Shown here one piece after another: positions 3,680 to 61,931 of a stretch of 64,000 nucleotides of DNA (its first letter is position 1; each line of letters begins with the position of its first letter). This stretch comes from Ruditapes philippinarum (taxonomy: Eukaryota). Location: the NCBI RefSeq assembly GCF_026571515.1, contig NW_026856503.1:62001-126000 (forward strand). Direction: 5' to 3'. Position numbers and translations under genes: made by a program. The notes beneath the pieces were generated by a model. The model did no database searches and was not told where the DNA came from. It saw nothing but the letters and a program-made list of their open reading frames with translations.

Positions 3680-3691
3680 CGAAAAGCATTT

Positions 3692-5267: not shown

Positions 5268-5433
5268 AGGATATTTTTTCGTTTTTTGTGAAATATGGAA
5301 TATATTTTCACGAAACATGATAAAATGCCAACATATTTTCACGAGCCGGAACGGCGAGTGAAAAATATGTGGCATTTTTATCATGTTGAGTGAAAATATA
5401 TACCATATTTCACGAAAAACGAAAAAATAACCT
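5268..5433. repeat. ~165-bp near-perfect palindrome at the start of a unit-1-specific segment
   Basis: Arms TTTTTCGTTTTTTGTGAAATATGG...CATGATAAAATGCC...TTTTCACGAGCCG / CGGCGAGTGAAAA...GGCATTTTTATCATG...CCATATTTCACGAAAAACGAAAAA. Confidence 0.75.
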
Positions 5434-9977: not shown

Positions 9978-11190
9978 GTTTTCAAGAAATGCGAAATTTC
10001 ACGATTGAATAAAATGTGGCCTAGCTTACAAGTATTTCAATAGTTTAAGATTTCGGTTTTCAATTACGTTTATAAATAAAAGTATATAAACAAGTTTACT
10101 TCCTGTTATCGTAAGTAAGGTACAAGTTAAAATATATAGGCGCCCAACTAAGGTACAGTCATTGGAAGAAACATAGGATAAAAAACACGGTATATTAATT
10201 CTGTTTATACTGTGTAAATGGTATAAATTACCTTGATTATATAAACATTTCAATTGAAAAGTAATTTGATCACCTACGTCATTTTCGAATTTTTTGTTTT
10301 GTTTTTGAGTTGGTTTTTTTTTGTTTGAATTAATGTCATTTCAAGGGCAGATAACTTATATATCAGTCTGACAAACCTTACCTTTACTAATACTAAAGTC
10401 CACACATTTCCATAAAGGATTAGTGTTCGCTTTATTCAGTTTAAAGACAACAAATAACGAGAGAAATCCATATACATATAGATAGTAAGTGTGAAAGCGG
10501 CATAATATAATGTATATAATAATAGCAAATAATAAATTGTTCTAGAGCACATTATCATTATTTATCATGTAAACGTTTAAACTAAATCACATATACCTTT
10601 TTCCTAATGGTATATATTCTGTTGTTTTATCAATATTTTATCAATATTAAAAGGGTTTGAGGTTTTTTTGACATGATATGACTGAAAATATTTTTTTCCA
10701 GATAAATGTACCATTTGATGTAGGTTTAGACCACTAATCTTTGTGCAAAATTTCAGATCATTCGCGCACCTTGTTTTTTCCAGAAAAAAAAAATTCTTAT
10801 TGCAAAAAATGACCCAAAATGAAAAGCGTTTAAACACTTTTCACTCAAATCGGGCTAAGAAAAGCATAAAAATACGATTTTTAATTTATTTCAAAGTATA
10901 TTTCTTAACTATCTTTGCATGTATTTCTGTTTAACGTGTCCCAGCACATTTATGTTAGAAATTAAAATGTAATGTTTTTAGGCTTTAAAACCTCAGTGGA
11001 GTCCTAAGTACTTTGAAAATATATTCTTTATAGATGTATCCACGGAGACTGAAAATTCTAAAATAAAACTGGATTAACTTAAAGAAACATCTTCCATTTT
11101 ATTAATAAATAAATATGTGGTTTCGTGTATTTTTGTTTCAATTTTTACTCATTTCGCACTTGTTAATTTACATTTACCTTTATGCTACTA

Positions 11191-20472: not shown

Positions 20473-21330
20473 GCTTTCAAGAAACGCGAAATTTCACGAT
20501 TGAATAAAATGTGACCGAGCTTACAAGTATTTCAATAGTTTAAGATTTCAGTTTTCAATGAAGTCTATAAAGCACAATATTTAAACAAGTTTACTTCCTG
20601 TTATGGTAAGTAAGGTACAAGTTAAAATATATAGACTCCCAAGTAAGGTACATGTACAGTCATTGGAAGAAATATAGGATCAAAAGACACGGTACTGTAT
20701 AAATGATATAAACCACCTGATTAATTGATCGAATGAATGGAGAGATATCTATTAGAAATCGACAAATTTAAATCTTATTAATTATACAACTAAACTGAAT
20801 TTTAACTACTGAATTTCAAAATGGATGGCAATGTAATAATCGATTTTGAATATTTAAAGGTACATAACTCATATGTAGTTTAAGGTGGACACTACAGTTG
20901 CATATAGCCATACGACAGATCAGAAGTTTATGTAAATTTTGTATGATAATAGATGAATATATAACTGATAATATGAACATTTTAATTGAAAAGTATTTTG
21001 ATCACCTACCTCATTTTCGAGTTTTTTTTTTTGTTTTTGAGGTTTTTTTTCGTGTGCATTCATGTCATTTTAAGGGCAATCTGACAAACCTTACCTTTAT
21101 TATTGGTTTTATTCGTGGCTATAACACTAAAGTCCACACATTTCCATAAAGGATTAGTGTTTGCTTTATTCTGTATAAAGACAACAAATAACAAGGGAAA
21201 TCCATGTACATATAGATAGTAAGCGTGAAAGCGGCATAATATTTTGTATATAATAATAGCAAATAATAAATTGTTCTAGAGCACATTATCATTATTTATC
21301 ATGTAAACGTTTAAACTAAATCACATATAC

Positions 21331-24063: not shown

Positions 24064-27000
24064 ATGTTACAGGCACGCATGATTTTTGTTTGTTTCACTT
24101 TGTGCTTTTTGAACAGTGTAACATCGGAATATGCACCGACGGGATGTGACCTAACTGGCGGGGGAACTGGTAAAGCCACTTGTGACTTTGCCAGCTGGAG
24201 TCCGCCGCTTGACGAGGGAGACTTTGGACCGGGGGATGTTTATCAAATTATTGTTGAAAATGTGGACGGAACTATACCAAATCAGGTATGAAACCTTTTA
24301 TAATAATATATTCTCCGTTTTTATCAATTTGACTAAATGAATATTAATAATGTAATTGACCAACTAATTAATAAATCAATAAAGATTGATCAATTCAAAC
24401 ATACAAGTTAATAAATTGAGATTTATATTGTATAACAAACAAGCGTTCAGTGTTATAATGCACGTAACTAAAACAATATTTACACAGGACAAAACATACG
24501 TAATATATGCATGTAATCAAAAACACCTAACATTAATAATAATTGATATAAATAATAAAAAATGCACTTCGATTTGTTTTATAATTTCTTCAGGCGTTCA
24601 GTGGAATTGACGACAACAAAAATACAACAAAAGACACCGGGATAAAGTTTGAGTGTACTCTAGAAAATATCTTACTGTCACCGGAAGTATTTACCCCTAA
24701 TCTGAGCTGGATGAAGTATCTTACTTTTAAGAATTGTTACGTTCAAGATGGTAACTGTCTATAGATAATTAAATATTGCAAATTTTTTTTCAATTGGGCA
24801 TATAGTATGTTAAAGAATCGTACGTTGAATATTGCTTTAATTTATTCCTTTGTGCCTTTAGTATAATGAGAACCGTGTATTGAATAGTGCTAGAATTTTT
24901 TCCATTGCGCATGTAGTATTATTAAGACTCGTACATAAAATATTGCTGTAATTTAATAAATTAAGGTGCGAATTTAGTTTTATAAAGAACTGTACGTTGA
25001 ATATTGCTAGAATTTATTCCATTGCGCATTTACATGTGTAGTTTTATAAAGACTCGTACGTTGAACATTGCTGTAATTTAATAAATTAAAGTGCGTATTT
25101 AGTTTTATAAAGGAACGTACGTTGAATATTGCTAGAATTTATTCCATTGCGCATTTACATGTGTAGTTTTATAAAGACTCGTACATTGAATATTGCTGTA
25201 ATTTAATAAATTAAAGTGCGTATTTAGTTTTATAAAGAAATGTACGTTGAATATTGCTAGAATTTATTCCATTGCGCATTTACATGTGTAGTTTTATAAA
25301 GACTCGTACATTGAATATTGCTGTAATTAAATAAATTAAGGTGATAATTTAGTTCTATATAGAAACGTACGTTGAATATTGCTAGAATTTATTCCATTGC
25401 ACATTTTGTGAGAACCGTGCCTGGAATGTTGCTACAACTATTTCCATTTCACATTATGTATTATATGTAATTGTTTATTGAATATTGTTATAATTTATTA
25501 CATTGCGCATTATGTATAATATGTTTGAATGGTCATACATAGAATATTGTTATAATTTATTCCATTGCACATTTAGTACCATAAAGATTTGTACATTTTC
25601 TTTATAAAGGAGGCATTCCTATGTGCGTGCATTTCTAGTTTGAGAATCCTTAATCAGAGAATAAATTTTTTTCAACAGTCAGACTTGTTACAGAATACCG
25701 AAAAACTAATATAATTATTATAGAGAATGTCGTGACTGTGAGGCTATTAACTTCATAATTACTTAGGAACTGAAAACATTTCTTCGATTTCTTTTTTTTT
25801 AATTTCAAAAAAGTGTTCGAGCTATTTCCTTAATCCTTTACCGATTTTTAGTGAGTACATACATCAGAAACGTATTTATTCATTACATTTAAACATAAGC
25901 AAATTTTGAGTGATTGTTAGCGGATGAAGGTCTTTAAAACTAAGGCGGAAAGTTTTTTTCTTTATCACGCTCGTTGTATTATTATTATTTCACAGGTATT
26001 TCGAGTGGAATGCTTTCAAACATGACTGGTCTGGAAGAGTTTACAGTTGACGGAGGTATCATAGGTCCCCTCTCATCAGACGTGTTTTCTGGATTAACAA
26101 ATCTTGTAAAGATAATAATAAATGCTGACTTTCTAGATGCTGATATACCTGCTGGGCTTTTCACAAGCCTTAGTGCGCTACAAGAAATAGATTTGAGATC
26201 CTCAGGCATCTCAAGTATATCAGCAGACACTTTTACCAATTTGGCACTTCTTACAAAAATTGACCTCTCGGAAAACTCGCTTACAACATTACCGGAAGGA
26301 ATGTTTACGTCGCTTATATCATTGTCAACAGTGGAACTTGGCACAAACTCATGGGATTGTACATGTGATTTGGCTTGGCTATCTACGTGGTCACTTTATA
26401 CAGGTATGGTATATAATATCAATATAAAGAGAGATCATTACCAGAAAAATAATAAATTAATTTTTCGAATCCGATTCAGTATGTTTGACGATTTTTCCTT
26501 ATAAAATAAAAAATACGCTCATGACGTTGATTTTTTTTCAATAACATTAATTTAGAAGATCACGTAAAAGTTGCAATTTTGAAATCTCTCATTTTCGTAT
26601 GTTCATGTTCATATTAATCCATTTACTATAAAGAATATATATCCATTACCTGTAAGGCTTAAATACGGTGGCTGATTTGGAACACTTTTTTGTCGTGTTG
26701 TAGCTAGCGACAGCACGAAAAAGCGCAAAACGGCACGTTGTCCCATTGTCGTCTTGTCGACCTATCGCTAACGATGGAGGCCAAACGCCGCGTTGTCGTG
26801 CGTACTTTTAGTATATATATAAGCCAAGCGACAGGACGACAACGAGCCGCCAGATAACGCGCCGTTTGGCGTGTTTCGCTTGCGACAAGATGACAGTGCG
26901 ATAATGCGCCGTTTGACCCATTTCGCTAGCGACAAGACGAAGGGGATAACGATATAGGTTGTGTTGTCGCTATCGAAAAAGTAGAAATATTAATTTTCTC

Positions 27001-39400: not shown

Positions 39401-42074
39401 TTTGTCTATGGCTGCAGGTAAAACATTTACAGTTCCCATTTAAATAAATGATACATCAATTTTTAAAGAGAACTACTTAAGGTAGAACGCGACACTTTGC
39501 GAACTTTCGAGTAGCGCCTTGAAAATTGGCATGCAAAAAGTTGATTATATTTCCGATAAGGTTCCGTTGATTTTATTTCAATAGTTTTAGCCAATTTTTG
39601 TACACACGGCGTCAAAGTTGACCATCAAAGCCCGTTTTTTAACATGACGTTGTTGCGTATCCTTGGCAACTGTTACGGGTATTTCAACGCCATTTGCGGA
39701 CAAAATATCCTAAATTCTACAGCATTCGACGGAAATTATTTTTTCCTTTAAGCTGATATAAAATTTATCGTTTTACGCCAAAAAATGTTTGAAAAATGGA
39801 AAGAAAACTGTTAATTTTGTGTAAAATTTGACGTTCAGTTTTTTCGGCTTTAAAGCGGCTTATTAAAAAATTCCTGAAATAAATTTTTGATTTTTTTGCC
39901 ACCAAATGCTAAGGACCACAATGGAAATAAGAGCTTGCTTGCTCTTTTTTGTGAATGTTGATGGTCAACTTTGACGCCGTGTGTACAAAAATTGGCTTAA
40001 ACTATTGAAATAAAATCAACGGAATTTAATCAGAAATATGGTCAACTGTTTGCATGCCAATTTTCAAGACGCTGCTCGAAAGTTCCCAAAGTGTCGCGTT
40101 CTACCTTAATAATTTTTGTTACGAAACTATTCATATGACGGAAAAAACTGGCTCAGTGGGTATGTTCTGCTATGTTTTTCTAAGTGAAAGGTATGAAAAG
40201 TTACCAATATTTTAACATGCATCAATAGATAAAAGATTTACCTTTCAAATAGTATATAATATTAAAGGATCAAATGTACATCCATTAAGTTTTATTTGAT
40301 ACAAAATGCCTATTTTTTCACTTTTTGATAGGCATGATTGATATTTCAATAGAGTATATAAGAGCTGCTTATCTCTGTTATCTATGTCTCTGCTTTAACC
40401 AATTACTGCATGAGCATTTTGTGAAAATGGCTGTTTTCATTGAAAAATCTCCCGTTACAAGTTCAAATTGCTATAAAACTATAAAAAATGCTTCAATACT
40501 AATCAGACTAACAACATGCTCAGTCTTACATTTCCTGTTACATGGCAACGAGGGGACATCTCAAAATTGCCAAAAATCACTATTTTGCGTTGATTTTTTT
40601 ATATTGATTTTGATCCTTTTTATTCTTTTTATAATATAGTGAGAAAATTTTGTTGCTTAGTTCCTTAGTTAGAGATTAAGAAGAATGTATATACATGTTT
40701 GTACATTTTAACAAAGTGACGAATGTTATAAGCGAAACATCGAGATTTTATTCTATTTAAGCAAAGCGGCTCATGTCTCTGTGACTGCGTTAGAAAAATG
40801 ACTGGATAAGTCTTATAATCAGATGACCTGGCTAGCTGGCCAATATGTTGATGTATACCTAATCGCCCCCTCCTCCATTTTCGATTCGCTTACGGAGTAC
40901 TTATTAACATTAATAATCTCTAAGCATTTAAAAAACATCAGATAAACCTTTGTGTTAAATTTTTTAAGGTCAAGACATTTATTCCAGCACCAGTCTTTTT
41001 GTTACTTATTGGGGTTGCATCGAAGATGACACATTGATCACTCCTTCGTGTTTTCGTAGAACCAGTCTTCCTCCAAGACGTCAATACAGTGTCAGAACGG
41101 ATAAAGAAATGTTTTATGCACAAACGCAGATCTCATGTATTATATTTACACTAAATATCTCGCGAATTCACACTTAGTTCTGAAGAAAGTTATGTAGCCT
41201 CGAGGCCAATTCCCCCCACCCGAGAATCTCTAACCCGAACGCGTCGTTCATCATGCTTCATGTTAATTGATAGTATCGTCTATGAGTCGGCAACATTATG
41301 CATTTTCACAGTCAAATATATCTTACTTTACGAATCTAGACTAACTTAAAGATTACACAAGCTTGCAGGCGAGTTTTTACTTCCGCTTTGAACAACTCTG
41401 TTTCTCAAACAATTTTTTCTTGCAATCTTTGAATCGCTTCTCTGCCAGATTTTGTTTTTCATTGAAAGGCTAAATTTTACTTAAGATACTTCACTTTAGT
41501 TTCTGTAATTCACTTTACATTTGCGAGATTCTTATTTCGCATCATGTATGCAGACTTCATTTGTTCTGATCCCCTTTCAAAGTTCCATTTTGTTAAGTTA
41601 CGCCCATCGTTTTCTCTTTTAGGGCACAGATATTTTTTCACCTGGATACCACACGCCGCTTTTCATGAAATGACACTAAAGTGTCACATTCCATGATCAC
41701 CGCCGTATGAACACATCTGCTCAAAATTTTTACCATTGCACGTAAAAAAGTTGAATACTGCTTAAGCTGGTGCCAGGGGACATGGACAGTAGCTTGCACT
41801 TTCCAGTACTGTCCATGAACAGACTCAATCAAACCGAACATGCTCAATCAAACCGAGCCTGCAACACTTTCAGTTTTTTTACGTTTTTAACTTACTTTAG
41901 GGATTATTATTTCTTTCTTATACCTCGTGACACTTCTCAACTCAGTTTGAAAAAAAAATTAATGTCAGATCTATCCAAATTAAAAAAGTGTACATTAATG
42001 AATTTTAAAACTTTAAAAACTAACAACTTACCATAACAAGCCACCAAGATCACTAGACAAATTATTGTCTTCAT
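33489..42074 (-). CDS. Paralog A: secreted KR-repeat precursor fused to an aKG-HExxH-like domain. Exons 42032-42074, 34225-37508, 33489-33670; ~1167 aa if four clustered insertions at ~36455-36610 are removed
   Basis: Exon 1 plus exon 2 give MKTIICLVILVACYDALA (signal peptide); phase-1 GT-AG introns; 17 x 37-aa units ending KR; HEFIH at 34364-34378, SPIRHELRD, FHASYV; exon 3 LVLFHARAGNW...VLNDSGRAML...RLM*. Confidence 0.85.
35246..37188 (-). repeat. Coding tandem array in paralog A: 17 x 111-bp units (SPEVMMYNAKDPQSSTMLFSDIFDTNRHEPLSMVTKR), 18 KR sites
   Basis: First-to-last KR distance 1937 = 17x111 + one 45-bp in-frame insertion + 5 nt of small insertions. Confidence 0.95.
37632..37704 (+). 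repeat. (GT)n/(GCGT)n microsatellite
   Basis: Direct inspection. Confidence 0.95.
39256..40392. mobile_element. Non-autonomous TIR element, CAGAG...CTCTG ends, 7-bp TSD CTTTAAC (P-element-like)
   Basis: TIR CAGAGACATAGATAACAGAGATA; CTTTAAC at 39249-39255 and 40393-40399. Confidence 0.8.
39481..40105. mobile_element. Nested MITE with ~150-bp TIRs, GG...CC ends and TTAA TSD (Kolobok-like)
   Basis: TTAA-GGTAGAACGCGACACTTTG ... CAAAGTGTCGCGTTCTACC-TTAA. Confidence 0.85.
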
Positions 42075-46181: not shown

Positions 46182-49100
46182 TCACATAAGACGAATAACA
46201 AATAAGAAATCTTCCATGGCTTGTAACATGGCTCTTCCCGAATCATTCAGTACGCCCACTTCATTATCTAACATAGTAAGACCTTCTACAGATGCTCTCA
46301 ATGGTTCAGCAAGTTTAACTGCTTTCTCCCAGTTACCAGCTCGTGCATGGAAAAGAGCAACCCCTAAAATATCAAGAAACATCCACTTAATTGAGACATT
46401 AAAAAAGAAAAAACAAATGAAATTGTTAGTGACAAAGATTCTCTTTGCCTTGTTCATTTCTTTTTAAATATGAAGTGAAAGTTTGCCTGTGAAAACTTTC
46501 TATTTTTCCTTAGATATTAACTGCATTTTTACATGTAACGACAATATGAGACTTCTTCTCAAAACTTGTGTTCGTTGTTATTTTGTTCTTGATATTACTA
46601 CAAATCCACGTGTATTATTGCAAAACATGCATGTTTTATAAAACTATTCGAAGTCTATTTTTTACGAAATTTTAACATATTGAAATGTCCATAAATAAGG
46701 CTGGACCATTTGTAATTTAGGGTCGAACGCTATTCGTATTTCATCAACATGTCGCATGTTACATACTTAACTTCCAAGGTATTATAATGATATACCTACC
46801 TGTCGAAACATAAGAGGCATGAAAGGTTTTGTCAAAATCACGAAGTTCATGACGTATTGGTGAATAGACTTTTGCCATGGAGAGCAATCTGTAGTCAGAA
46901 AATGTTCCATGTACAAGGTCGGCAAGGAATAAAGATGTATGTATAAATTCATGGACTATTTGTTCGGCATAATGCGCCACTGTCTGTTCCTTATATGAAT
47001 TAGGATCTTGCCAGATAAGCCCGAGAGCAGAACTTATACTTCCACCAGCAAAACCCGGATGCTCTGCCTTGTAAAACGCTATGCATGATACAATTTGATG
47101 AATAACTTTGTATAGTTCTGGCATTGTGTCATTTATAAGTGACATCGCTGCTTCAACTTTCCCTAGTATATAAGCTTGTTCTTCTAGTGTATACAAATGA
47201 AGTCCCGCATCTACATATTCTCTGCTCATTTCTTGAAGACCAGAACAATTTAATGCATCGATCACAAGGGAATCATTAAAACTGTATACTATCTTATTGC
47301 TCTGAACAGGAATTTTTAGAGTTTGGAACTTTTCAAGAATTTCATAAAACATAAGCTTCTGTTTTTCTGGTGTTGCGACCAATCCGGAGAAACCAAGAAG
47401 ACCAAGTTTTTGATTCATGAAACCAATGTCGTAAGCAAAAGGCCAGAAGAGTTTTTCAAAGACATTGGATTTTGAAATTTCATGTATTACTGTTTCTTGA
47501 CTCAAAGCTGGATATTTTAGTTTAAAGTATTGTCGAGTTAAATCATCATGCCCAAAAATAGAGATAGTCTGTTTCCATGTGCTAAAAAATTTGCTTTCTT
47601 CTAAAGGTGCCTCCTTGACAAGTGTATAAGTCATTTTGAACCACTGATTTATAAAACTTGAAAGCTCTATCACTTGATTGTTCTGGTTTGCCGATTCATT
47701 TCTCTCTATGGTAGTAACAGAGACATTGGTTCCAGCACAAATCATGATATGCCTAGGTTTTTTATCATTTAGCACGGCTTTGTATGCCATCACTTGTGGG
47801 GACCTTTTCTCGAACAACATTGACATTAGTTGATGATTAACTGTATCCAATGTGTTACTATATCGCATTACCGATGGCTGCATATCTTTTGCATTGTACA
47901 TCATCACTTGTGGTGACCTCTTTTTGTACATCATTGACATGGGTTGATGTTTATCTTCGTCCAGTGAATTACCGAACAGCATTCCCAAAGGCTGCATCTC
48001 TTTTGCATTATACATCATCACTTGTGGCGACCTTTTTCCGTACATCATTGACAAGGGTTGATGTTTATCTGAATCCAGTGAATTACTGTACAGCATTCCC
48101 AAAGGCTGCATCTCTTTTGCATTATACATCATCACTTGTGGCGACCTTTTTCCGTACATCATTGACAAGGGTTGATGTTTATCTGAATCCAGTGAATTAC
48201 TGTACAGCATTGCCGATGGCTGCATGTCTTTTGCATTATACATCATCACTTGTGGTGATCTTTTTCCGTACATCATTGACAATGGCTGAAGATTATCGAT
48301 ATCCAACGTGTTACTGTATAGCATTGATGATGGCTGCATATCTTTTGCATTGTACATCATCACTTGTGGTGACCTCTTTTTGTACATCATTGACATAGGT
48401 TGATGTTTCTCTGCATCAAATGAATTACTGTACAGCATTGCGGAAGGCTGCATATCTTTTGCATTGTACATCATCACTTGTGGCGACCTTTTTCCGTACA
48501 TCATTGACATGGGTTGATGTTTATCTGCATCCAATGAATTACTGTACAGCATTGCGGAAGGCTGCATATCTTTTGCATTATACATCATCACTTGTGGCGA
48601 CCTTTTTCCGTACATCATTGACAAGGGTTGATGTTTATCTGCATCCAATGAATTACTGTACAGCATTGCCGATGGCTGCATATCTTTTGCATTATACATC
48701 ATCACTTGTGGCGACCTTTTCCCGTACATCATTGACAATGGCTGAAGATTATCGATATCCAATTTGTTACTGTATAGCATTGATGATGGCTGCATATTTT
48801 TTGCATTATACATCATAACTTGTGGTGACCCTTTTCCATACATCATAGATAATGGCTGAAGATGATCGATATCCAATATGTTACTGTATAGCATTGCTGA
48901 TGGCTGCATATCTTTTGCATTATACATCATCACTTGTGGTGACCTCTTTCCGTACATCATTGATAAAGGCTGAAGGTTTTCAATATTTAATGTGTTACTA
49001 TATAGCATTGACGATGGCTGCATATCTTTTGCATTGTACATCATCACTTGTGGTGACCTTTTGCCAGTAATTTCTATTGGCAGAGTACCGGTGCCTAAAT

Positions 49101-51653
49101 TGTTCCTGTACATCATCGGTGACGGCTGCAGATCTTTTGCGTTGTACATCATTACTTGTGGTGGTTCTTTGCTGTACAACATTGACAGTGGCTCTAGATT
49201 TGTAGTTTCCAACTTGTTGCTGTACATCATGGTCATTGGTTCAACCTCTTTTAAAGTCATCATTACATTCCTTGGTGAATGTGAATTTGGACTCTTATTG
49301 TTTAATTTATTTCTGGCTTCATTCTGCTTTATTTTAAGATACTCAGTAAAGTCTCTGTCTTTTTTCTCCTCTAGTTTCCTCAACGATATGAAGCTGTCTT
49401 CGTCAAGATTTCGTACATTCCACCGGAAGTTGCTTTCTTTATACCTGTTCACATTTTCTATCAACTGCTTTTCTAATGGCACTGGTAACAAAGCCAAAGC
49501 ATCTGAAATATTTAAATAGATACAAGACATCATAAACATGTGTAGATGTTTTGAATTATTAAGTTAACTATTTCCTCTGCTAATATACAATGCAATCTTT
49601 TATTTTCAGTTAGTTTTATTTTATTTTCAATTGCCGGCATAAGAAAATTATTAGTTATTTCTAACGAATATTTAATAGTTACAACTGACAATTCACGGGT
49701 TTCTTAGATTTCCTATTTTATGTGTATTTAAGTAATTAGTACTGCTACTTTAATCATTTTCTGTAGTTATTTTCAGGAAATACAATTAAATGTTAAAAGA
49801 AAAGAATTGAATCGTAACCATACAAAAGCTTTGATTAGTAGGAAATTGTCTAAATTTATTTGCTATGCAACATGAGCTAGAGATAAAACTATTAACTTCC
49901 AACTAATTTCAAACACTAATAATTATATATATATATATTTTTTATTTCATGACTGTGAAGTTATGTATGGAATATTACTTTTCTCGCATTTAGATTGTTT
50001 TTTCCCCCATTGGTTATATGTTATTAATTTGTGTACACGCCATTATAGTTTTTAGCAATAGACATGTTTGTGCCTTAATAAAATTTTGAAATAAAAATAT
50101 TGAAGTGAAAAAGTGTAGTAAGAGGATTCGCTCAAAGAAACGTATTATTAAATTTTTGAGAGTATTAAAACAAAATTTATATATAGATCCTTATCACTTA
50201 TATAATGCGAAAACCGTTAAAGTGGATTGGTCTACAATGGAAATATTTTGAACAAATTTTTATGAAAAACAACAAAAGAAAATATTAAATTATTTTTGAA
50301 AAAAAAAATGTTGATATTATTTTAAGTGATGTAGTATGAACATTTGTATGAATAATATTTTGTTCTAGGATCAAGCCTAACGGAAAAGAATGTGCCTAGC
50401 CAGATGATGGAACTGGCAAATAAGAATTTAAATATACGACGCTCTCCCTACTAAGAGGAAGATATTTTACGAATGACAAGAACACTCTTCTAGAAATCCG
50501 TATAATTTATTTAGCAGAATAATATTCCAAAAATCTAAACAGTTGTTTGAACACTTTTAAAACATCTCATCGTATAACATTCTATGTTTTAAATACTAAA
50601 TTGAGCCGTGTCACGGCAAAACCAACATAATGCGTTTGCGACCAGCATGGATCCAGACCAGCCTGCGCATCCGCGCAGTCTGATCAGGATCCATTCTGTT
50701 CGCTATCAGTTTCTCTACTTGTAATAGAGTTGGTAAGCGAACACCATGGATCCTGATCAGACTGCGCGGATGCGCAGGCTGGTCTAGATCCATGCTGGTC
50801 GCAAACCCATTATGTTGGTTATGTCGTGACACGGCTCAATTGTTGGCGTTAGTTATAATTGACGTTTTAATTCCCAAAATGTTTGTCATAAGATAAAGTA
50901 TTTGATACTGAAGTATTTAAGTTTTCTTAATAAATGAATGTCAATGATAATAACTAAGCTAGTCGCTATTTAACTATTATTGTTGCTATTTGTAAGCGCA
51001 CAGTTATTTTTAACTAGGCACTTTTAAAGGGTAACGTAAATTATAGCATCGAAATAAATTTAAATATAGTCATACGTGTCCACTCATTACAAAAAACTAA
51101 ATGAGCCGCGTCACGACAAACCAACATAATGGGTTTGCGACCAGCATGGATCTAGACCAGCCTGCGCATCCGCGCAGTCTGATCAGGATCCATGATGTTC
51201 GCTATCAGTTTCTCTACTTGTAATAGAGTTGGTAAGCGAACAGCATGGATCCGCGGATGCGCAGGCTGGTCTGGATCCATGCTGGTCGCAAACGCATTAT
51301 GTTGGTTTTGTCGTGACACGGCTCAAATGATTCGTTTTCACCTTTAATTGAGAAGATGGCCGTCTTGTGATATTGAAATAACTGAATTCTTTATTGATTT
51401 TAAAAAGTAATGTCAGATTTGTTGTTTTTGCCGTTGTAACTTTTAACTTTGTGAATTAATGAAATGACTGTTTGGAAGAATTAAAAAAAAGGGAAAAAAG
51501 AAACCAGTAAATAAAAAATAAATCGATAAAAAACAACAAAAATTAAAAACACAAACAAAATTAAAATAAAAAATAAATCAATAAAAAAAAACAAGTAACA
51601 AACAACTTACCATTACATGCCACTACGATCACTATACAAACTATTGTCTTCAT
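46182..51653 (-). CDS. Paralog B: secreted GKR/KR-repeat precursor fused to an aKG-HExxH-like domain. Exons 51611-51653, 46800-49502, 46182-46363; 975 aa, intact
   Basis: MKTIVCIVIVVACNDALA signal peptide; phase-1 GT-AG introns at the same positions as paralog A; CDS 43+2703+182 = 2928 nt open; 11 x 38-aa units; HEFIH at 46939-46953. Confidence 0.92.
47803..49062 (-). repeat. Coding tandem array in paralog B: 11 x 114-bp units (SPQVMMYNAKDMQPSAMLYSNSLDADKHQPLSMMYGKR)
   Basis: First-to-last KR distance 1254 = 11x114; degenerate units flank the array. Confidence 0.95.
50603..50837. mobile_element. GAGCC-MITE, AATT TSD (intron 1 of paralog B)
   Basis: Same family. Confidence 0.9.
51103..51324. 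mobile_element. GAGCC-MITE, AAAT TSD (intron 1 of paralog B)
   Basis: Same family. Confidence 0.9.
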
Positions 51654-51713: not shown

Positions 51714-53757
51714 GTGTAATGTGTTGATGGTCTAGTAAATAGTCGAGATGTCATGGCAAAGGTGACCATGTACGTGAATAAAGGGCAAAGGTGACGGCAT
51801 TGCTGTTTCGCAATAGTATAAACACATCTATAGATCCAATGTGATGATCAGACAAAATGGAAGGTCCATCGACTATCAGATGTGTTTAAAAACAAAATGT
51901 TAATTTGTAACAATTCAAATGTAACAGTTGCTTAAAACACCAAAAGCATTTAGTACCCAAATTCGACTGCTTCTTATTTTCGAAGCTAAATCGTTTGGTA
52001 TTGGCCGCTGCCAAACTATCGCCTTAAGAAATACTGCACCGAATACATCAAGTACTTGTTTTTGTTTTCAATGATTTCAACGTCAAAATGGCATGTAGTG
52101 TTTACGTTTTTAATGATAATAGAGCATATTTGTCAAAGATAAGAAATGTTACTTTTACAAGACAAATGTCATAAAGTTTAAGACGTCTATGAATTAAGTA
52201 AAGTACACCAAAGACACAGATAACGTTATCTTTATCATCGTCCTGGTTACTATTTGAAACAGCCGCCAGCTTTTCTTTCTGCCTAGCAGAAATTTTGTGA
52301 GTTCAACAAAGATTTTTACGCGCTCCAAACGAGTGGAAACTACATTAAATTGTATTATTTACTAGCAGGTTTCAATTAAATATGTATTGTAATTATCTAA
52401 TCACTGGTCTTCGTTTTGTCACAATAATTTGTCCTGTGAAAGAACCTTAAAACAAAATAAGAGAAGGAAAGTATTGAACATCTAGGTGTGGTTATGTCTG
52501 TTCTGGATAAAAACATGTAACTTTTCTCGTGCATTCACAACTGTGGAGAAGCACGAGGACGCATTAAAAGGCCAAACCCACAGGGCGAGTGATTTTATAA
52601 ATCCGAGCACTTCTGCACAATACGAGTACAATACACGAATAAAATGCATTCGTTTTATTATTGCACAAAAATATACGTTTGATTCTTTTTTTTTTTCATA
52701 TAAAGAAACCGTCACGTGTGCTTAGGAAACCACTAGGCATCCATCGCAATTAGCTATTTTTGCATGACGCCCTAAATAAAGCATATTAAAAACGTGGAAA
52801 AAAAACACGACGCGCTCGCACGTGTGATTTTATCGTCTTCCTTGTTAATAGATACCTGCGCAGCAAGAATACACTATATTAAGCTTAAGCTATAAAATTA
52901 TGATTCGAGGGGTCAGTATAGTTCTAAATGATCAGCGAAAAGTTTATAACACATAAAATATGTTTAAGATACATTGTATTTTGTTGTTAAGGGCAATCAA
53001 AACAAATAAAGTGTTTAATGTTTAGATTGTGAACGTTTCTTTATATGTGTCGTGTTTAATGTGAAGACTACAGAATGTATTAGTCTCGAACAGTCATCAT
53101 GTTTTCTGTTTGCAGTCGAAAAGTTGCATCAATAGCAAGAAAGTGCATCTTCAAGTGTATTCTGTTGAAAACAATTCTGATTTGTATGCTCATTTTGTTT
53201 ATATCTGCAATTATTATTTACAAACGTAAAACTGCATATACTCTTTGCTCGTTGTTTTTGTTAAGTACGCCAAGCTGAAAATTGAAATTTTAATGTAAAA
53301 GATAACAATGTTTAATCGTACAGATGTAAATAAGTGCGATTGTGTAATATCTCCTACATACTCACCTCTTGATAGATCTGTTGTTTAAACAATGTCAAAG
53401 TTTAATAATCAAGTATAACAATGTACATTTTTATAAATTTTCAAATTAAATCAAGAATTCAAGTATGCAATCAGTTAAATTTTTTATTTTTATTCCCACC
53501 ATGAAGTTGAACATAAAATATAAATTGTTTAGAATGTGCCGTTATGACAAGGGTAAAAATTAGAACGATGATACCAAATAAAATGATGTAAATATACAAT
53601 CTAAATTGAAACAGTGTTGAATGGATTTGTTTACATATATGTAAAATATTAACCATCATTGTTCACGGAATATCCGTTATAAGGTGTTGTAGTTTTTTGT
53701 GTTATTACGATAAAATATATAAATGTCTTGATTAGAATTGCAAATACGATTTTCAAA

Positions 53758-56700
53758 ATGAAAGGAAATAGAATTGTTATAGATGAAAATGCACCTTTGA
53801 TAGAGCCAGAAGTTGATACAGCCGTGCCTCATGAAAACGAGAAGAAACCAATTGACGGTATTACTGGGAATAATTTGATGCTCCCGCCAAATCAAATTAT
53901 TACCAGACAGCATTTTCTCGTCTGGCCTGTAGCGTTTCTGTTTGTGACAGCGTATAATCTGACGTTTGCATCATTTGGACAATACGTATACATTAAACTA
54001 CAGAACGAAAACTTTCCTGGAATTCGTGTCAACAAAACTACAGCTTATTGTGAAGTTAATACATCATCAGACAATTTTAGGATTCAGGAGGACGTTCAAC
54101 AAAAAGCGGCAATATGGGGCATTTATTTCTACATGTCTGGAGGCTTCACGTCTATAATCGCTAACTTTATCCTAGGAGCTTACACAGACCGTTTTGGACG
54201 TAAGTTCTTGTTCATACTTCCATGTGTTGGAACAATAGTACGAACGTCTATGGCTATCGTAGGGATGCACTATGACCTCCCGCTGTATTATTACATTGCG
54301 GGCTATTTTCTTGAAGGATGTACTGGACAAATATTCAATATCTTTCAGATAACGTACCTTTATGCCGCCGACATAACAGAAAACGGTAAAGCACGATCTG
54401 TAGGAATTGTCATTGTGGAGTTGGCGTTTGGACTAGGCACTGTTGCCCCGACCTTGGCAGTCGGGTTTATCCTAGAAGAAACTGGTTCATTCCTCATACC
54501 ATTTTACATCTCTTTAGGAATACTAGTTTTTACATTATTTCTGATATTCCTTTTACCCGAGACTTACCCTAAAGCTATACGCAATCAAAGAAAGTATACC
54601 TCAAAGTTTGAAAATCTTAGAGACGCGTCCGATCTTTTCTTTAGCAAGAAAAACGCTGGTCGTAGATGGATGTACTTCACCACAATTCTTGTGTTTTCGT
54701 TTACCGTATATAACTTATTTGGTCGCACCGCTATGGAAGGACTTTATCTGTTGAATTATCCTCTGTGCTGGAACCCAACGAAAATTGGAGTATTCGGAGC
54801 GTTGAGGTTGGCTCTACAGCAAATAATTGGAATGATGAGCGTGAAATTGTTTCATATTTGTATGAATGACGAGATGATAGCGATTATAGGTTGCGTATCG
54901 TACGCAGCATCATTTTTCATAGAGGCTTACGCTACAAACGATTTAATGATGTATTTAGGTAAGCGTCTTTTAACAACATATCTTGCGTTTTATGATACTA
55001 TTAGATGTTAGCTCTACATATTTCAGTATGATCGCAAATAGTTTTGCAATTCTAGATTGAACTCATTAATTTTTAGTTCCCAAGTTCTAAATATAAATTG
55101 TAGTTACATATTCTCACATATATACTTATTATGATATCTTATCATGGAAGTTTTAAGCAGGAAACTTCAACGTCAGAGACTATATTGGCTGGAACTAGAC
55201 TCAAGGTTATATAACTTTTTTCTGAGTTCTGTCTCAAATCTCAGCATTTTCATTGGTCAGTGATTATTCTTTGACAGTTTCTTACGAATCAAATACCTGG
55301 GATCTGAGTTTTGTATTCGTTTTTGCTGTGAATCATTAAGTTAAGACTAAAACGACATGTGCATCTGATGAAGAATATTCTAACACTAGTTATTTTGCTA
55401 TATTTCCAGTTGCAATAGTTGGAACGTTTGGTTTATTGACTATACCAATGATTCGTTCTATATTATCTCAGATGACCTCTCCACAGAAACAAGGTGAGGA
55501 CAATTTATACACGAAATTCACGAGGGTTCCGCTACTGTATAATAAACATGTTTTGAATAGTATTTCATTTTCATCATTCTTTTGAGTTTTGATGGGGCTG
55601 GAACATTTTTGTTTCACACTTGAAATATCTTTTGATAAATGCTCTTTAAATATGAAATATTCAAAATGATGGGAGTTTAATTAAAGTTGTGATGTTTACA
55701 AACTAGGAATTATTTTTTTGTTTGTTAAATGTGTTGGTTGATAAATTCTAGTGAAGTATTTTGAAAAGTTACACAATTACAATGAATATACAAGAATTGA
55801 GCCGCGTCACGACAAAACCAACATAATGGCATTCGGCCAGTCGGATCAGGATCAACATAATGGCATCCGCGCAGTCTGATCAGGATCCATGCTGTTCGCT
55901 TACAAACACTATAGCAAGTAGAGAAACTGACAGCGAACAGCATTGACCCTGAGCAGACTGCGCGGATGCGCAAGGTGGTCTGGATCCATGCTGGTCGCAA
56001 ACCCATTATGTTGGTTATGTCATGACGCGGCTCAATTCATTTTTTTATTTGTCAAAACTGGTCTGACTAAACAGGTCTGGTGTGTTAATGATATTAACCT
56101 TATTTCTGAAGAGTTTAATTTTGTTCTGTTGTTAGCTGTACTTGGTAAAAGATCCATTTTCACCTTGATTCATCTATTTAATGATCTTTTTTTTTGTCTT
56201 CTGAAATTATTGTATGTGTAATGTGACTGATTTTATGAATTTGTTTGTTCTGTAACATATTGTTTATTTTTATGAACGTTTGTTCGAGCAGGAGCTGTGT
56301 TTGCCAGTGTTTCAGCTGTAGAGACTGCGGTTAATTGTATAGGGGCAGTGACCTCCAATTCTGTATATATAGCTACAGTAAAGATTCAGAGAGGTTTTAC
56401 GTTTCTTTTGTTTGCTGTCTTCAGTGTTTTTGGCATGATTCTTATGATGTAAGTAATCATCGATAATAAATATAAGTAATAGAAAGAGCATCGAAAGACG
56501 AGGCTATCAGATTTGCACGAGGGAACGTAGTAATTGTGTCATAGTTTGGAGACCTTTTTATTGAAAATATGTCAGAATACTCGTACACTAATGCATACAC
56601 TGTGTGTTAACTGGGGTGCAGGTATTAGTTACCCGTACTCCAGTTACCGCACTGTCTGTCAGGGATAAAAAAGAGCATGTTTGTTTGATTGGTTTATCCA

Positions 56701-59700
56701 AATTGGGGGTTACTTATTGTGACGACATGGAAAGGGTTAATGATTAAAAAATCACATTCAGATGCTCGTACATTGGTTATTTTTTCTAGGGTTTCATCTT
56801 GTGATGACAGAGAACCTGTCTATGATACAAAAGAAAAGAACATCAAGACACTCCGCAATCTGGTCTATACTCGGGGCCTACGCCATCTCGTACAAAGTAG
56901 ATAGTCTCGTGTTTCGATGCTCTTTCTATTACTGCTTAACTCTTAGCTTTAGCTTGTTGGCGGTTACAGAATTTACCCAAGACAACTTTCAGCCGGCATA
57001 GTCGTGCCGTTTAATCATGGCCCGCAGTGTTCGCTAAAAGATAGACAGGTCCATTTTAATATATATGTAATGAGATATATATGTAATGAAATATATATGT
57101 AATGAGATATATATGTAATGAGATATATATGTAATGAGATATATATGTAATGAGATTAAAAAAGTAAGACTAACTTGGGTAGATGAAATATCTCAATGCG
57201 TGTGTAATGATTCTAAGTATGTCTGAAATCTACATTTGTTATGATTTTATAACTAGCATTTATGATATTCTAATAATCGGTCGACAAACTGTATTTCTTC
57301 CTCTGAATTTTGTGATTTTTGTTCAGCTCGAAACAATTCGAGTGAGATACAGTCGGTTTATGATAAAGGTTATATGTAACTATTTTATTATTTATTTATA
57401 TGTAAATGAATTTAAAATTAAAGTACATGATGCAATTAGTAAATGATTATTATAATGTAAGGTAACTATATGAATAATTATTTATGAAAATTTAGGAAAT
57501 TTATCATATGCAAAAAAGAGCAAAATATTTTAGAAAATATAACGACCTGTAAGACTTTATCGCCCCTCTTGAAACTTGTTTTATCTAGATAAAGTTGCTG
57601 TTTAAGGCATATTTGGTATACTATAGCCTCCTATCCATTACAGTTGTAGTACGAACTTCAACATGATAAATGTGATTTACAATGCAACCAGAAGAAAATG
57701 AAAAAAGTCTTCTTTACTTATCCATGATAGCGACTCGCTTATTAAAACATTTCATGGGACTGTAATGTATGTGAGAAGTTAGCAGTGAACAGTGAGCTAA
57801 GCAAAAAGGCATTTCAATTTATATAGGGAAGGTAATGATCTGCTGTAATGCTCAGCTGTTTTGGGCATCTAGCAGGGCATTCCTAAATATAGTGTAAAAA
57901 TGCTCTGCTGCAATACTCAGCTGTCTTGGCAATCTAGCAGAGCATTCCTAGCTTTAGTGAAAAAAATGCTCTGCTGGAACGCTCAGCTGGCTAGGCAATC
58001 TAGCCGTGCATTACTAAATATAGTGTTAAAATGCTCTGCTGGAATGCTCAGCTGGCTAGCTAAGCTGGCTAGGCAATCTAGCAGGGCATTACTAAATATA
58101 GTGTAAAAAATGCTCTGCTGGAATGCTAAGCTGGCTAGGCAATCTAGCAGGACATTACTAAATATAGTGTTAAAATGCTCTGCTGGAATGCTCAGCTGGC
58201 TAGGCAATCTAGCAGGGCATTACTAAATACAGTGTAAAAATGCTCTGCTGGAATGCTAAGCTGGCTAGGCAATCTAGCAGGGCATTACTAAATATATTGA
58301 ACAAATGCTTTTCTGGAATGCTAAGCTGGCTAGGCAATCTAGCAGGACATTACTAAATATAGTGTAAAAATGCTCTGCTTGAATGCTAAGCTGGCTAGGC
58401 AATCTAGCAGGGCATTACTAAATATAGTGTAAAAATGCTCTGGTGGAATGCTAAGCTGCTAGGCAATCTAGCAGGGCATTACTAAATATAGTGTAAAAAT
58501 GCTCTGCTGGAATGCTAAGCTGGCTAGGCAATCGAGCAGGACATTACTAAATATAGTGTACAAATGCTATTCTGGAATGCTAAGCTGGCTAGGCAATCTA
58601 GCAGGGCATTACTAAATATAGTGTAAAAATGCTCTGCTGGAATGCTAAGCTGGCTAGGCAGTCGAGCAGGACATTACTAAATATAGTGTACAAATGCTAT
58701 TCTGGAATGCTAAGCTGGCTAGGCAATCTAGCAGGGCATTACTAAATATAGTGTAAAAATGCTCTGGTTGAATGCTAAGCTGCTAGGCAATCTAGCAGAG
58801 CATTAAGAAATATAGTGTAAAAATGCTCTGCTGAAATGCTAAGCTGGCTAGGCACTATAGCAGAGCATTCCTTAATATAGTGAAAAAATGCTCTGGTGGA
58901 ATGCTCAGCTGGCTAGGCAATCTAGCAGGGCATTACTAAATATGGTGTAAAAATGCTCTGGTGGAATGCTAAGCTGGCTAGGCAATCTAGCAAGGCATTC
59001 CGAAATATAGTTAAAAAATGCTCTGGTGGAATGCTCAGTTGGCAGACTGATTCTGAGTTCCAGGATTTATTGTTGCCAAAGTTTTATTGACATTTTCGAC
59101 TTCTAGGCAATTCTGAGGCACTCGCAGACTTTCAGGAATTTTTGGTGCAAATAGAAATAATGATATTTTTGACTTCTAAGGACCTTTAACAGACTATTTC
59201 ATTGTCCTGCGACTTTTTGAAGGACACTCGCAGACTTTCAGGAATTGTGGTGCCAATGCTGATATTGACAATTAAGACTTCTAAGGACCCTCAAGAGTCC
59301 ATTTTGGTCGTCTGCGACTGATTCTTGGACACTCGCAGACTTTCAGGAATGGTTGGTGCCAATGGAAATATTCATATTTTTGACTTCTAGGGACCTTTAA
59401 GAGTACATTTCATTGGCCTGCAGCGTATTGTTGGACACTCTCAGACTTTCAGGAAAGTTTGGTGCCAATAGAGATGATGGCAATTTTTACTTCTAGGGAC
59501 CCGCCAGAGTCCATTTTTATGGTCTGCGACTGAATCTGGGACATTCGCAGACTTTCAGGAATCTCTGGTGCCAATGGAGATAATGACATTTTTGACTTCT
59601 AACGACCCCCCAGAGTTCATTTCGCTGGTCTGCGACTGATTTTGGGACACTTGCAGACTTTCAGGTATTTTGATGCCAATGGAGATAATGACATTTCTGA

Positions 59701-61931
59701 CTTTTAGGGAACCGCCAAATTACATTTCTTGGGTCTGCGACTGATTCCTTGAGACTCGCAGACTTTCAGGATGTTTAGTGCCATTGCAGATCATGACTTT
59801 TTTACTTTTAAGGACCCTTAGTCATAAGCAGAGCATTTTTACCCTAAAATGTCATTATCTGCATTAGCACCAAAAATTCCTGAAAGTCTGCAAGTGCCCT
59901 ATAATCAGTCGCAGACCAACGAAAAAGACTCTGGGTGGTCAAAAATGTCATTAATTGTAATTATCTCTATTGGCACCAACAATTCCTGAAAGTCTGTGAC
60001 TGTCCAAGATTAAGTCGCAGACCAAAAAAATGGACCCTGGATGGTCCCTAGAAGTAAAAAATGTCATTATCTGCCTTGACATCAAAATTCCTGAAAGTCT
60101 GTGAGTGCCTCAGAATCAGTCGCAGACCAAAAAAATGGATTCAGAAAGGTCCAGTAAGTCAGAAATATCATTTTCTGCATTGACACCAAAATTCCTGAAA
60201 GTCTGCGAGTGACTCAGAATCAGTTCGCAGACCAACGAAATAGACTCAGGAGGGTCCTTTGAAGTAAAAATGTCATTATCTCCATTGGCATCGAACATTT
60301 CTGAAAGTCTGCGAGTGTTCCAGAAACATTCGCAGACCAACGAAATGGACTCTGGATGGTCCTAAAATTCACAAATGTCATTATCTGCATTAACACCAAA
60401 AATTCCTGAAAGTCTGCGATCGTCCCAGAATCAGTCAGAGACCAAAAGAAATAGACACTTGAGGGTCCCGTAGAAGTCAAAAATGTCATTATCTGCATTG
60501 GCACTAAAATATTTCAGAAAGTCTACGACAGCCAAATAATCTGTTTGCAGACCAACGAAATTATATACTTTATTTAAGAATGCCCTGCTAGTTTGCCTAG
60601 ACAGCTCAGCATTCCAGCAGAACATTTTTACACTAATTTTCAGAATGCCTTGCCGGATTGCCTAGCCAGCTGAGCATTTTTAACACTATATTTAGGAATG
60701 CCCTGCTAGATTGCTTAGCTAGCTGAGCATACCAGCACAGCATTTTTCGCACTATATTTTGGAACGCTCTGCTAGATTGCTTAGCCAGCTGAGCTTGCCA
60801 GCAGAGCATTTTTACACTATATTTAGGAATGCTCTGCTGGATTTTCTAGCCAGCTGAGCATTTTAAACACTATATTTAGGAATGCCCTTCTAGATTGCCT
60901 AGCCAGCTAAGCAACTCAGCAGAGCATTTTTACACTATTTTTGGAATGTCCCGTTAGATGCTTAGCCAGCTGAGCATAAACAGCTAAGCATTTTTACACT
61001 ATATTTAGGAATGCCCTGCTAGATTGCCTAGCCAGCTGAGCATACGAGCAGATCATGTTTACACTATATTTTGGAATGCCCCGCTAGATTGCTTACCAAG
61101 CTGAACATAACAGCAGAGCATTTTTACACTATATTTTGAAATGTCCCGATAGATTTCTTAGCCTGCTGAGCATAACAGCAGAGCATTTTTACACTATATT
61201 TTGGAATGCCCCGCTAGATTGCTTAGCCAGCTGAGCATAACAGCAGAGCATTTTTACACTATATTTTGGAATGCCCGCTAGATTGCTTAGCCAGCTGAGC
61301 ATAACAGCAGAGCATTTTACACTATTTTTTGGAATACCCCCGCTAGATTGCTTAGCCAGCTGAGCATAACAGCAGAGCTTTTTACACCCCTATTTTGGAA
61401 TGCCCGCTAGATTGCTTAGCCAGCTGAGTATAACAGCAGAGTTTTTTTTTACACTATATTTAGGAATGCCTGCTGGATTTCCTAGCAAGCTGAGCATACC
61501 AGCAGAGCATTTTTACGCTATATTTTGGAACGCCCCGCTAGATTGCCTAGCCAGCTGAGCATACCAGCAGAGCATTTTTTACACTATATTTAGTAAATGG
61601 CCTGCTAGATTGCTTACCCAGCTGAGCATACCAGCAAAGCATTTTCTACACTTTATTTTGGAATGCTCTGCTAGATTGCTTACCCAGCTGAGCATAACAG
61701 CAGATCATTGTTTTCCCTATATAAATCGTAATGCCTTTTTGCTTAGCTCACTGTTAACTGCTAACTTCTCACATACGACTGTAATTATGTTATGTTTTTG
61801 CCATTTACATAAGTTTGTACTTAGTGCAACTTTTATTTCTTACTGACACAATAACAAACATTTTTTTAATGTTTTTCAGTATCTTCACAATAGGCTCAAG
61901 AGGGTCAAAGAAAAAGGTGTTCACCGAGTAA
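53758..61931 (+). CDS. SLC46-family (PCFT/SLC46A3-like) MFS transporter, ~497 aa. Exons 53758-54958, 55410-55493, 56292-56448, 61880-61931 (last exon uncertain; alternative 56790-56904)
   Basis: MFS motif A GAYTDRFGRK, YAADIT...R, LPET, PLCW, PMIRSILSQM...QGAVFA; ~12 hydrophobic helices; N-terminal ENAPLI dileucine-type motif; GT-AG introns in phase. Confidence 0.85.
55799..56033. mobile_element. GAGCC-MITE, AATT TSD
   Basis: Same family. Confidence 0.9.
57059..57155 (+). repeat. 16-bp minisatellite (ATATATATGTAATGAG) x ~6
   Basis: Direct inspection. Confidence 0.9.
57767..61776. mobile_element. 4.0-kb Foldback-type element (MULE/FB-like) with satellite-built arms and 9-bp TSD
   Basis: GTATGTGAGAAGTTAGCAG... 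/ ...CTGCTAACTTCTCACATAC; GACTGTAAT at 57758-57766 and 61777-61785; each arm has a ~59-bp array then a ~60/120-bp array; centre ~59820-59850; no transposase. Confidence 0.92.

Follow-up and report, generated by a model that had tools for sequence, protein, structure and literature searches.

We examined a 64,000-nucleotide stretch of the genome of the clam Ruditapes philippinarum (assembly GCF_026571515.1, contig NW_026856503.1, positions 62,001 to 126,000; hereafter the window, in whose own numbering all coordinates are given), in which a first-pass annotation had singled out a tandemly repeated peptide precursor on the minus strand. The repeat stretch (47803-49240) sits inside a 934-codon open frame and belongs to a three-exon gene, referred to here as gene B, whose model encodes 975 amino acids. 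Exon 1 (51653-51611) supplies the start codon and the hydrophobic core of a predicted signal peptide, judged from hydrophobicity and gene structure, and ends in a phase-1 GT donor. Exon 2 (49502-46800), an open frame between an AG acceptor and a GT donor, contains the end of the signal peptide, a pro-segment, the repeats and most of an oxygenase domain, and exon 3 (46363-46182) adds the C-terminal helices of the oxygenase and the stop codon. The model was built by looking for a first exon of hydrophobic character and by comparison with paralog A (33489-42074, minus strand), which has the same three-exon layout (42074-42032, 37508-34225 and 33670-33489) and whose counterpart of exon 1 is 86% identical.

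Gene B is a real, spliced animal gene. The joint between exons 2 and 3, with GT-AG ends, is present in contigs of two of the four sequencing runs, X7 (RNA on record) and X1 (RNA by guess), and the end of exon 1 is matched by the 12-nt loose end of an X7 contig that departs from the genome at the exon-2 acceptor. Bins of exons 2 and 3 have contig depths of 444-5801 in X7, compared with 22 in intron 2; contig depth is a poor measure of expression, and its direction in this run is as expected. One X1 contig extends into intron 1. In the raw-read runs depth over the exons is below about 6 per direction (X19) or 0 (X21), and gene B expression therefore appears to be sample-dependent. Bacterial contamination was considered as a source of the gene and is ruled out by the GT-AG introns, the spliced joint in the run contigs, the neighbouring Toll-like receptor (TLR)-like genes and the existence of named records in several mollusc genomes.

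The array proper consists of eleven perfect 114-nt units, each encoding 38 amino acids (47803..49056, minus strand). On its N-terminal side lie degenerate proto-repeats with four single PxxM motifs (49057..49239), the last of which, a 36-residue proto-unit, ends TGKR, and on the other side a partial twelfth unit, SPQVMAYK (47779..47802), precedes the linker. A recount reproduced exactly the composition given by the first-pass annotation: seven units end in YGKR (units 1, 3, 4, 5, 7, 8 and 9), two in YKKR (6 and 10), one in YGKG (2) and one in FEKR (11), and all eleven start with Ser-Pro and hold six or seven Met residues. Met makes up 16.5% of the array. Pfam matches on the repeats (DAO_C, Glrx-like and others, none with a passing stretch) are repeat artefacts.

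Each unit carries three P-x-x-M-[ML]-Y motifs with spacings of 12, 16 and 10 residues, and the extension as a whole holds 37 motifs of the form P-x-x-M-[MLRA]-[YF], of which four lie before the regular array. Three motifs within one 38-mer were never obtained in 200,000 shuffles of the unit consensus. At the nucleotide level, motifs 2 and 3 are identical at 17 of 24 positions, motifs 1 and 2 at 13, and motifs 1 and 3 at 11, against a background mean of 6.9 over 437 codon-register pairs, 11 of which reach 13 or more. In a protein from Mya (P0012), the eight-residue monomer PQMMVYNE is itself found in tandem between RKR-type sites. The earlier suggestion that the 38-mer grew out of a shorter motif is thus very likely to be right, being well supported by the nucleotide identities for motifs 2 and 3 and moderately so for motif 1. 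Among the eleven units the ratio of non-synonymous to synonymous differences (pN/pS) is 0.23 overall, with 0.00, 0.28 and 0.11 for the three motifs, about 0.5 for the spacers, 0.06 for the Lys-Arg (KR) pair and 0.88 for the Gly codon, values in which the pairs are non-independent and the single-codon figure is noisy. This pattern indicates that the units are under purifying selection and that their dibasic sites are conserved among units.

The C-terminal third of the protein scores 53.4-55.9 bits against TIGR04267, the aKG-HExxH (alpha-ketoglutarate-dependent) peptide beta-hydroxylase family, for which the curated cut-off is 40; the exon-2 part of the domain (46800..47658, minus strand) gives 55.9. 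The metal-binding motif is HEFIH (46939..46953), whose H, E and H are invariant in all 134 aligned rows. An invariant Arg (46842-46840) is found in 24/24 rows of the animal clade described below and in 110/110 others, and a near-invariant third His (46821-46819) in 23/24 and 105/110, so that HExxH, further His and Arg are all intact in gene B. We take the Arg and the third His to be co-substrate and metal ligands, respectively, roles that are predicted here. An N-x-T sequon occupies one position in 12 of the 24 animal-clade rows versus none of the 110 others, which fits a luminal location.

Structure prediction places the domain in the same family. A model of the Mya homolog P0004 (118 aligned sequences, mean predicted local distance difference test score (pLDDT) 84) matched the bacterial enzyme ChlH in Foldseek (E 2.8e-8), and superposition on ChlH (8s5f) gave Z 21.1 and a root-mean-square deviation of 3.1 over 253 residues; SjiH followed with Z 18.5, and the next chain reached only 5.0. 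For the domain of paralog A, a model from a shallow alignment (nine sequences, mean pLDDT 61) also ranks 8s5f first (E 2e-3), as a hint of fold only. Sequence searches of the PDB returned no match, and Pfam/NCBIfam scans of gene B matched no BURP family and no methyltransferase family. The C-terminal domain of gene B is therefore a member of the aKG-HExxH peptide hydroxylase family with a ChlH-type fold. In characterised members, beta-hydroxylation of His, Asp, Phe, Gln and Pro is described (PMC13060819), and basic residues are mentioned for aKG binding (PMC12614342).

Directly upstream of the close stand-alone bacterial enzymes, a separate open reading frame (ORF) of 37-66 amino acids was present in all four Bacillota records examined (Bacillus phage SPbetaL1 and plasmids of Staphylococcus warneri, Cytobacillus and S. 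aureus). The leader motif N-I-x-x-[YF]-x-x-x-[HY]-[FIL] lies in the first part of this ORF, and a single Met core lies towards its end. A leader profile from four bacterial precursors alone has its best clam window in the pro-segment of gene B (49458-49423; p=0.0005), a motif of the N-[IV]-x-x-Y-x-x-x-[HN]-F type that is the predicted enzyme-binding leader. Among 19 animal-clade extensions the same profile gave p<=0.0025 in 10 and p<0.05 in 12, the bacterial windows having been picked by eye and several of the animal-clade misses looking N-terminally incomplete. In the deep-alignment model of P0004 the leader segment forms a helix (pLDDT 87-97) and the linker lies below 50. On these comparisons, homology of the leader between clam and bacteria is well supported.

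Beyond the Bacillota, distant enzymes of Ralstonia and Acinetobacter are preceded by ORFs that end in QPLNMIAY and IPLRMIAY, close to QPLSMMY and PQVMAY of the clam, without the Bacillota leader, and the upstream ORFs of Acidimicrobiales, Nocardia and Streptomyces show neither the leader nor the core pattern, yet all have a Met near the end. In a partial Bacillus thuringiensis record, cores are fused to the enzyme. The nine bacterial precursors are biased to plasmid and phage records, and the six precursors that were scanned for this leader/Met-core type matched no NCBIfam precursor family. Our scans recovered two loci from genome contigs and four from metagenomes, and a 401-genome phylum search recovered the centre genome only; three of the six scan loci (L002, L005 and L006) hold radical-SAM (S-adenosylmethionine)-associated enzymes with a different precursor and were excluded from the motifs. 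The minimal cassette, precursor plus aKG-HExxH enzyme, is seen on SPbeta-like phage and plasmids (L007:2795-3879, L008:3821-4873, L009:3658-4745 and L010:2859-4897). A major facilitator superfamily (MFS) gene lies nearby in three of these four, L010 has two enzymes in tandem, and the S. warneri precursor gene is unannotated.

The animal family was gathered by three word-index searches and one profile search, and the best 150 of 725 representatives at E<=0.001 were examined. Named members come from Mya, Mercenaria, Mactra, Dreissena, Pinctada, three Haliotis species and the rotifer Adineta. A quick maximum-likelihood analysis of 96 rows placed all 33 rows labelled animal in one clade (SH-aLRT 100) among bacterial-type sequences; 16 of them are from named animals (14 by the name of the source, two being the clam's own genes), 17 were labelled by score before the tree was made, and the tree took in none of the characterised enzymes. 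Several members of the sister group (support 94) have the leader fused to the enzyme. Transfer from bacteria would be the simplest reading of this tree. The likely course is that enzyme, leader and core were taken up from bacteria as one cassette and fused, that a signal peptide and introns were added, and that each lineage re-amplified the cores on its own. The N-terminal extensions differ completely among family members in unit length and sequence, and the number of repeats varies greatly from one paralog or species to another.

What recurs in these extensions is a Met-centred motif. It is repeated in 12 of the 13 repeat-bearing proteins among 28 animal-clade proteins examined (PQMMVY, PRTMMY, PVRMKI, FSMKLS, PRSMKL, PYLMRV, WLMRVE and others), with a chance per unit of about 0.08-0.18 that serves as a guide only, the pattern having been set post hoc and the proteins being related. 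When the 38 registers of the clam unit are scored with a profile of seven bacterial cores, the three PxxM motifs take the first three ranks. Since the Met motif recurs both in these 12 proteins and in the bacterial stand-alone precursors, the PxxM motifs are likely to be true cores, that is, the amplified substrate of a fused oxygenase of the type that tailors bacterial peptides that are made on the ribosome and modified after translation (RiPPs). Homology of the clam and bacterial cores seems probable but rests on short motifs. The proposal of the first-pass annotation that the PxxM motifs are the likely sites of recognition or modification is in this respect supported. Its choice of Tyr, Asn and Asp as the modified residues is weakened: the residue conserved in the family is Met, in many cases preceded by Pro at a distance of three residues.

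Several other observations touch the diversity of the family. Four precursors, P0015 (the rotifer protein), P0041, P0169 and P0177, have an AlkB-like 2OG-Fe(II) oxygenase domain between leader and cores, giving two oxygenases per precursor, and P0041 carries about 38 WLMRVED cores with almost no KR. P0128 and P0154, both Ala-rich, carry an Asp/Asn beta-hydroxylase domain fused C-terminal to the HExxH domain (Pfam shown for P0128). Chains with leader, core and enzyme fused but with neither signal nor KR occur as well (P0045 and P0046). Six proteins of one clade (P0050, P0051, P0053, P0058, P0062 and P0095) have the leader fused to the enzyme through a linker without a Met core, and are possibly leader-activated enzymes acting in trans. 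An intron after a YVS[TI]G motif appears to be common to relatives (L003:550-700, and the models of P0005, P0013, P0035 and P0036, which run into an intron at the same point); the Adineta-like locus L004 is continuous there.

Taken together, gene B probably encodes a secreted-type polyprotein with a leader, Met-centred cores and an aKG-HExxH oxygenase that hydroxylates its own cores before predicted convertase cleavage at Lys-Arg, a proposal we hold with fair rather than strong confidence. Architecture, splicing, domain family, intact motifs and leader homology are observed; the order of events is our proposal. The protein would enter the endoplasmic reticulum (ER) by its signal peptide, as suggested by exon 1, by signal-like N-termini across the family and by the N-x-T sequon in animal-clade domains. 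The leader helix is then predicted to bind the enzyme domain, and with the cores still attached, Fe/2-oxoglutarate-dependent C-H hydroxylation, as expected from the chemistry of the family, would take place within each PxxM or next to it. The ER is a compartment in which 2-oxoglutarate oxygenases, prolyl hydroxylase for example, are active. Cleavage at KR would come later in the secretory route, followed by trimming of basic residues and, for the seven Gly-ended units, amidation by PAM, to give 35-mers of about 4.02-4.08 kDa before oxidation. A requirement for the leader has been reported for hydroxylation by the bacterial enzyme PflC (PMC12636437).

A number of points weigh against this proposal. 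Among the nine bacterial upstream ORFs, the core pattern is unmatched in three and the leader pattern absent in five. The bacterial core profile does not score in the clam above composition-matched shuffles (p=0.55; the array is Met-rich), and of 25 animal-clade rows just 4 reach p<0.05. The model of P0004 gives the cores pLDDT 42-59, so that core docking is not predicted, and the high values of the leader helix are only an indirect sign of docking. The one exception among the 13 repeat-bearing proteins is an abalone protein with Leu in place of Met; no recognisable Met core is present in P0015 of Adineta, P0031 of Mactra and three abalone proteins, and the arrays of P0034, P0037 and P0041 have no or few KR sites. 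The conserved Met of the bacterial precursor PosA can be mutated without loss of processing (PMC12636437), and the tree, with its present sister group, is in effect unrooted and does not fix the donor. A complex prediction that combined one unit and the leader of gene B with Fe and the enzyme domain of paralog A, and in which the alignment was unused, scored 0.06 and was counted neither way.

As to the residue that is modified, we tentatively place the hydroxylation on the Pro/Gln pair just before Met, a choice whose chances we put somewhat below even. It is favoured because Pro and Gln are established substrates of bacterial members and because the site of action of the Pseudomonas enzymes lies at least two residues ahead of the conserved Met; in all three clam motifs, Pro stands three residues before Met with Gln beside it. 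The main weakness of this choice is that Pro is absent from some cores (SPbetaL1, P0034, P0041 and P0045). Met itself, our second choice, is a rather unlikely target. Met sulfoxidation by analogy with CoiH was also considered and was dropped, CoiH being described as belonging to a different, metal-site-free family.

For the Pseudomonas enzymes PflC and PosC, Gln is hydroxylated and the backbone is cut at an Ala two residues before the conserved Met, giving an amide; a Gly variant yields alpha-hydroxy-Gly with partial cleavage and amide formation, and PflC hydrolyses without the leader (PMC12636437). One may therefore consider that the HExxH domain of gene B cleaves its own chain, by zincin-like hydrolysis or by oxidative backbone scission, and so frees the cores or amidates them, whether or not convertases and PAM take part. 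The long arrays without KR in several family members point the same way, as they would need some other means of release if their cores are released at all. Scission, however, requires Ala or Gly, while the clam has Gln, Ser or Leu two residues before Met; the KR sites are conserved in the clam, and the fold is far nearer to ChlH than to zincins (Z 21 versus about 5). We therefore consider self-cleavage improbable in gene B.

The KR sites also bear on another explanation, namely that the repeat region is a secreted Met-rich tract (an oxidant sink, a soft-metal binder or a structural element), possibly hydroxylated by the attached enzyme, from which no small peptides are made. The high Met content, the highly variable copy number and the existence of arrays without KR would all be expected of such a tract. 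It would not be expected to maintain one dibasic site per unit at a pN/pS of 0.06, and the single-core members and short bacterial precursors, which carry the motif once, fit a substrate better than a bulk property. We regard this explanation, too, as having little probability.

The Gly residue in front of KR requires separate treatment, as G-K-R is the canonical signal for amidation by PAM. Processing of the YGKR units, should it occur, would yield 35-mers with an amidated end and masses of 4020.8-4080.9 Da (computed, unmodified monoisotopic). In gene B, 8 of 11 KR sites, the proto-unit included, have Gly in front of them, against only 1 of 68 sites across 26 other animal-clade proteins, the record of paralog A among them, in a count that leaves out KR followed by Pro (thereby dropping three SGKRP sites of P0013) and the near-duplicates P0014, P0019 and P0024 (one with TGKR), and in which not every KR need be cut. 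Paralog A, with units of 37 amino acids, has Thr before KR at all 18 of its T-K-R sites and Gly at none. Within gene B units the Gly codon is the least constrained part; an X1 contig has Arg for Gly in unit 1 (48951), where mis-placement among repeats is possible, and P0011, whose domain is 94% identical and whose end is chimeric, has YGKR at one of six unit ends. Across species, conservation is seen in the internal Met motif and not in the unit C-termini.

Because Gly is rare in relatives, absent in paralog A and variable within the species, the amidation signal is not a family trait. Amidation in gene B is plausible but secondary, a recent, loosely held and lineage-specific extra and not the purpose of the system. 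That PAM nevertheless amidates the seven Gly-ended units, if the protein is processed, seems to us slightly favoured. The convertase/PAM signal of the first-pass annotation thus stands in so far as the dibasic sites are conserved among units and G-K-R is real in the sequence, and falls short as a property of the family. This also bears on whether gene B is an ordinary neuropeptide-like prohormone for amidated ...SMMY-amide peptides, with an attached domain that is vestigial or acts on other substrates. A signal peptide, KR at 10 of 11 unit ends and strongly constrained, G-K-R at seven and the Ser-Pro starts are what such a prohormone would show. Its amidation signal, however, is the part that nearly all relatives lack, its catalytic residues are intact across the animal clade, the bacterial leader motif is retained in the same chain, and between species it is the internal Met motif that is kept while unit C-termini vary. 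An ordinary prohormone is therefore an unlikely explanation, and a framing as neuropeptide misses the fusion of the repeats to a leader and a bacterial RiPP-type oxygenase.

The fused, probably self-modifying precursor has parallels in other kingdoms. With the bacterial aKG-HExxH hydroxylases (TIGR04267/IPR026337: ChlH, SjiH, PflC/PosC, PesO and BpmH), gene B shares family, fold, HExxH, His and Arg; bacterial relatives lie directly behind a short leader-core precursor gene, whereas gene B has leader, cores and enzyme in one chain and is an intron-containing animal gene with a signal peptide and many cores with KR sites. Plant fused burpitides (SkrBURP and AhyBURP) likewise have repeated cores N-terminal to a metal-dependent oxidative domain, and split and fused versions of one pathway exist there as in the gene B family (PMC11253845), but theirs is a copper BURP cyclase of plants that makes side-chain cross-links, and not an Fe/2-oxoglutarate HExxH domain of an animal. 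Borosins (OphMA) have a precursor fused to its own modifying enzyme, and fungal dikaritin and other Kex2-processed precursors (UstA and GigA) have a signal peptide, repeated cores and KR sites (PMC6514808). Unlike gene B, borosins use a SAM methyltransferase with the core at the C-terminus, and the dikaritin oxidases (DUF3328, tyrosinase) are separate genes, the gene B oxygenase being fused and of another family. Animal prohormones and conopeptide precursors resemble gene B in signal peptide, dibasic sites and G-K-R (present in 7/11 gene B units); these, to our knowledge, rely on general host enzymes and have no dedicated fused tailoring enzyme.

Self-modifying precursors have precedents among fungi and plants and would be a novelty in animals, and the enzyme family of gene B is otherwise studied in bacteria. 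Our literature search, which covered listings and the openings of abstracts, found no animal aKG-HExxH protein and no fused animal RiPP precursor; the string 'eukaryot' is absent from the main text of PMC12636437, whose supplementary family networks may show eukaryotic nodes. If the enzyme is active, autocatalytic RiPP biosynthesis extends from fungi and plants to animals, and a bacterial RiPP cassette, its leader intact, has become domesticated within the secretory pathway. On balance, we lean towards the broader view that molluscs and rotifers, and probably further invertebrate groups, have a family of self-modifying RiPP-type precursors of their own, derived by horizontal transfer of a bacterial cassette that was fused and wired into the prohormone pathway, with Met-centred cores amplified in each lineage and, in the clam, G-K-R leading to hydroxylated, amidated peptides, the fused enzyme possibly being alpha-hydroxylating. 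On this view, farmed shellfish (clams, abalone and pearl oyster) are predicted to hold modified peptides of an unexplored class, and the bacterial leader/Met-core precursor type defined here lies beyond NCBIfam coverage. Animal peptide natural products are hard to tie to their tailoring enzymes, the genes being unclustered (PMC6514808). In gene B, substrate and enzyme share one open reading frame, so that one expression experiment can reveal both the product and its chemistry.

In this assembly, the frame of paralog A is broken between 36636 and 36409, where two units measure 114 and 113 nt rather than 111 and so disrupt it; this may be either an assembly error or a broken gene. Its downstream frame corresponds to the first 756 amino acids of the R. 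philippinarum record LOC132746778, and one unit of 156 nt with an internal partial duplication lies near 35920-36076. No radical-SAM or MNIO partner was found in the gene B chain or among the long ORFs of the window. The precursor genes are flanked by an exon of a leucine-rich repeat (LRR) protein (25944-26504, plus strand) and an MFS transporter exon (53683-55011, plus strand). Two near-identical single-exon genes of LRR-transmembrane-TIR (Toll/interleukin-1 receptor), i.e. TLR, type lie at 7716-9998 and 18403-20493 (minus strand), the frame of the second ending early within the TIR region; their proximity to the precursors is no evidence on the role of the peptides. A palindromic element of about 240 bp, resembling a miniature inverted-repeat transposable element, occurs in many copies (50597-50844, 51092-51333, 30660-30910, 31740-31970, 32280-32490, 33140-33390 and 55780-56000) and is very abundant in all four runs. 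Finally, a block of 65-bp and 105/106-bp tandem arrays occupies 57834-61722, and the consensus units of its two sides resemble reverse complements of each other, which suggests a long inverted-repeat element of the foldback type.

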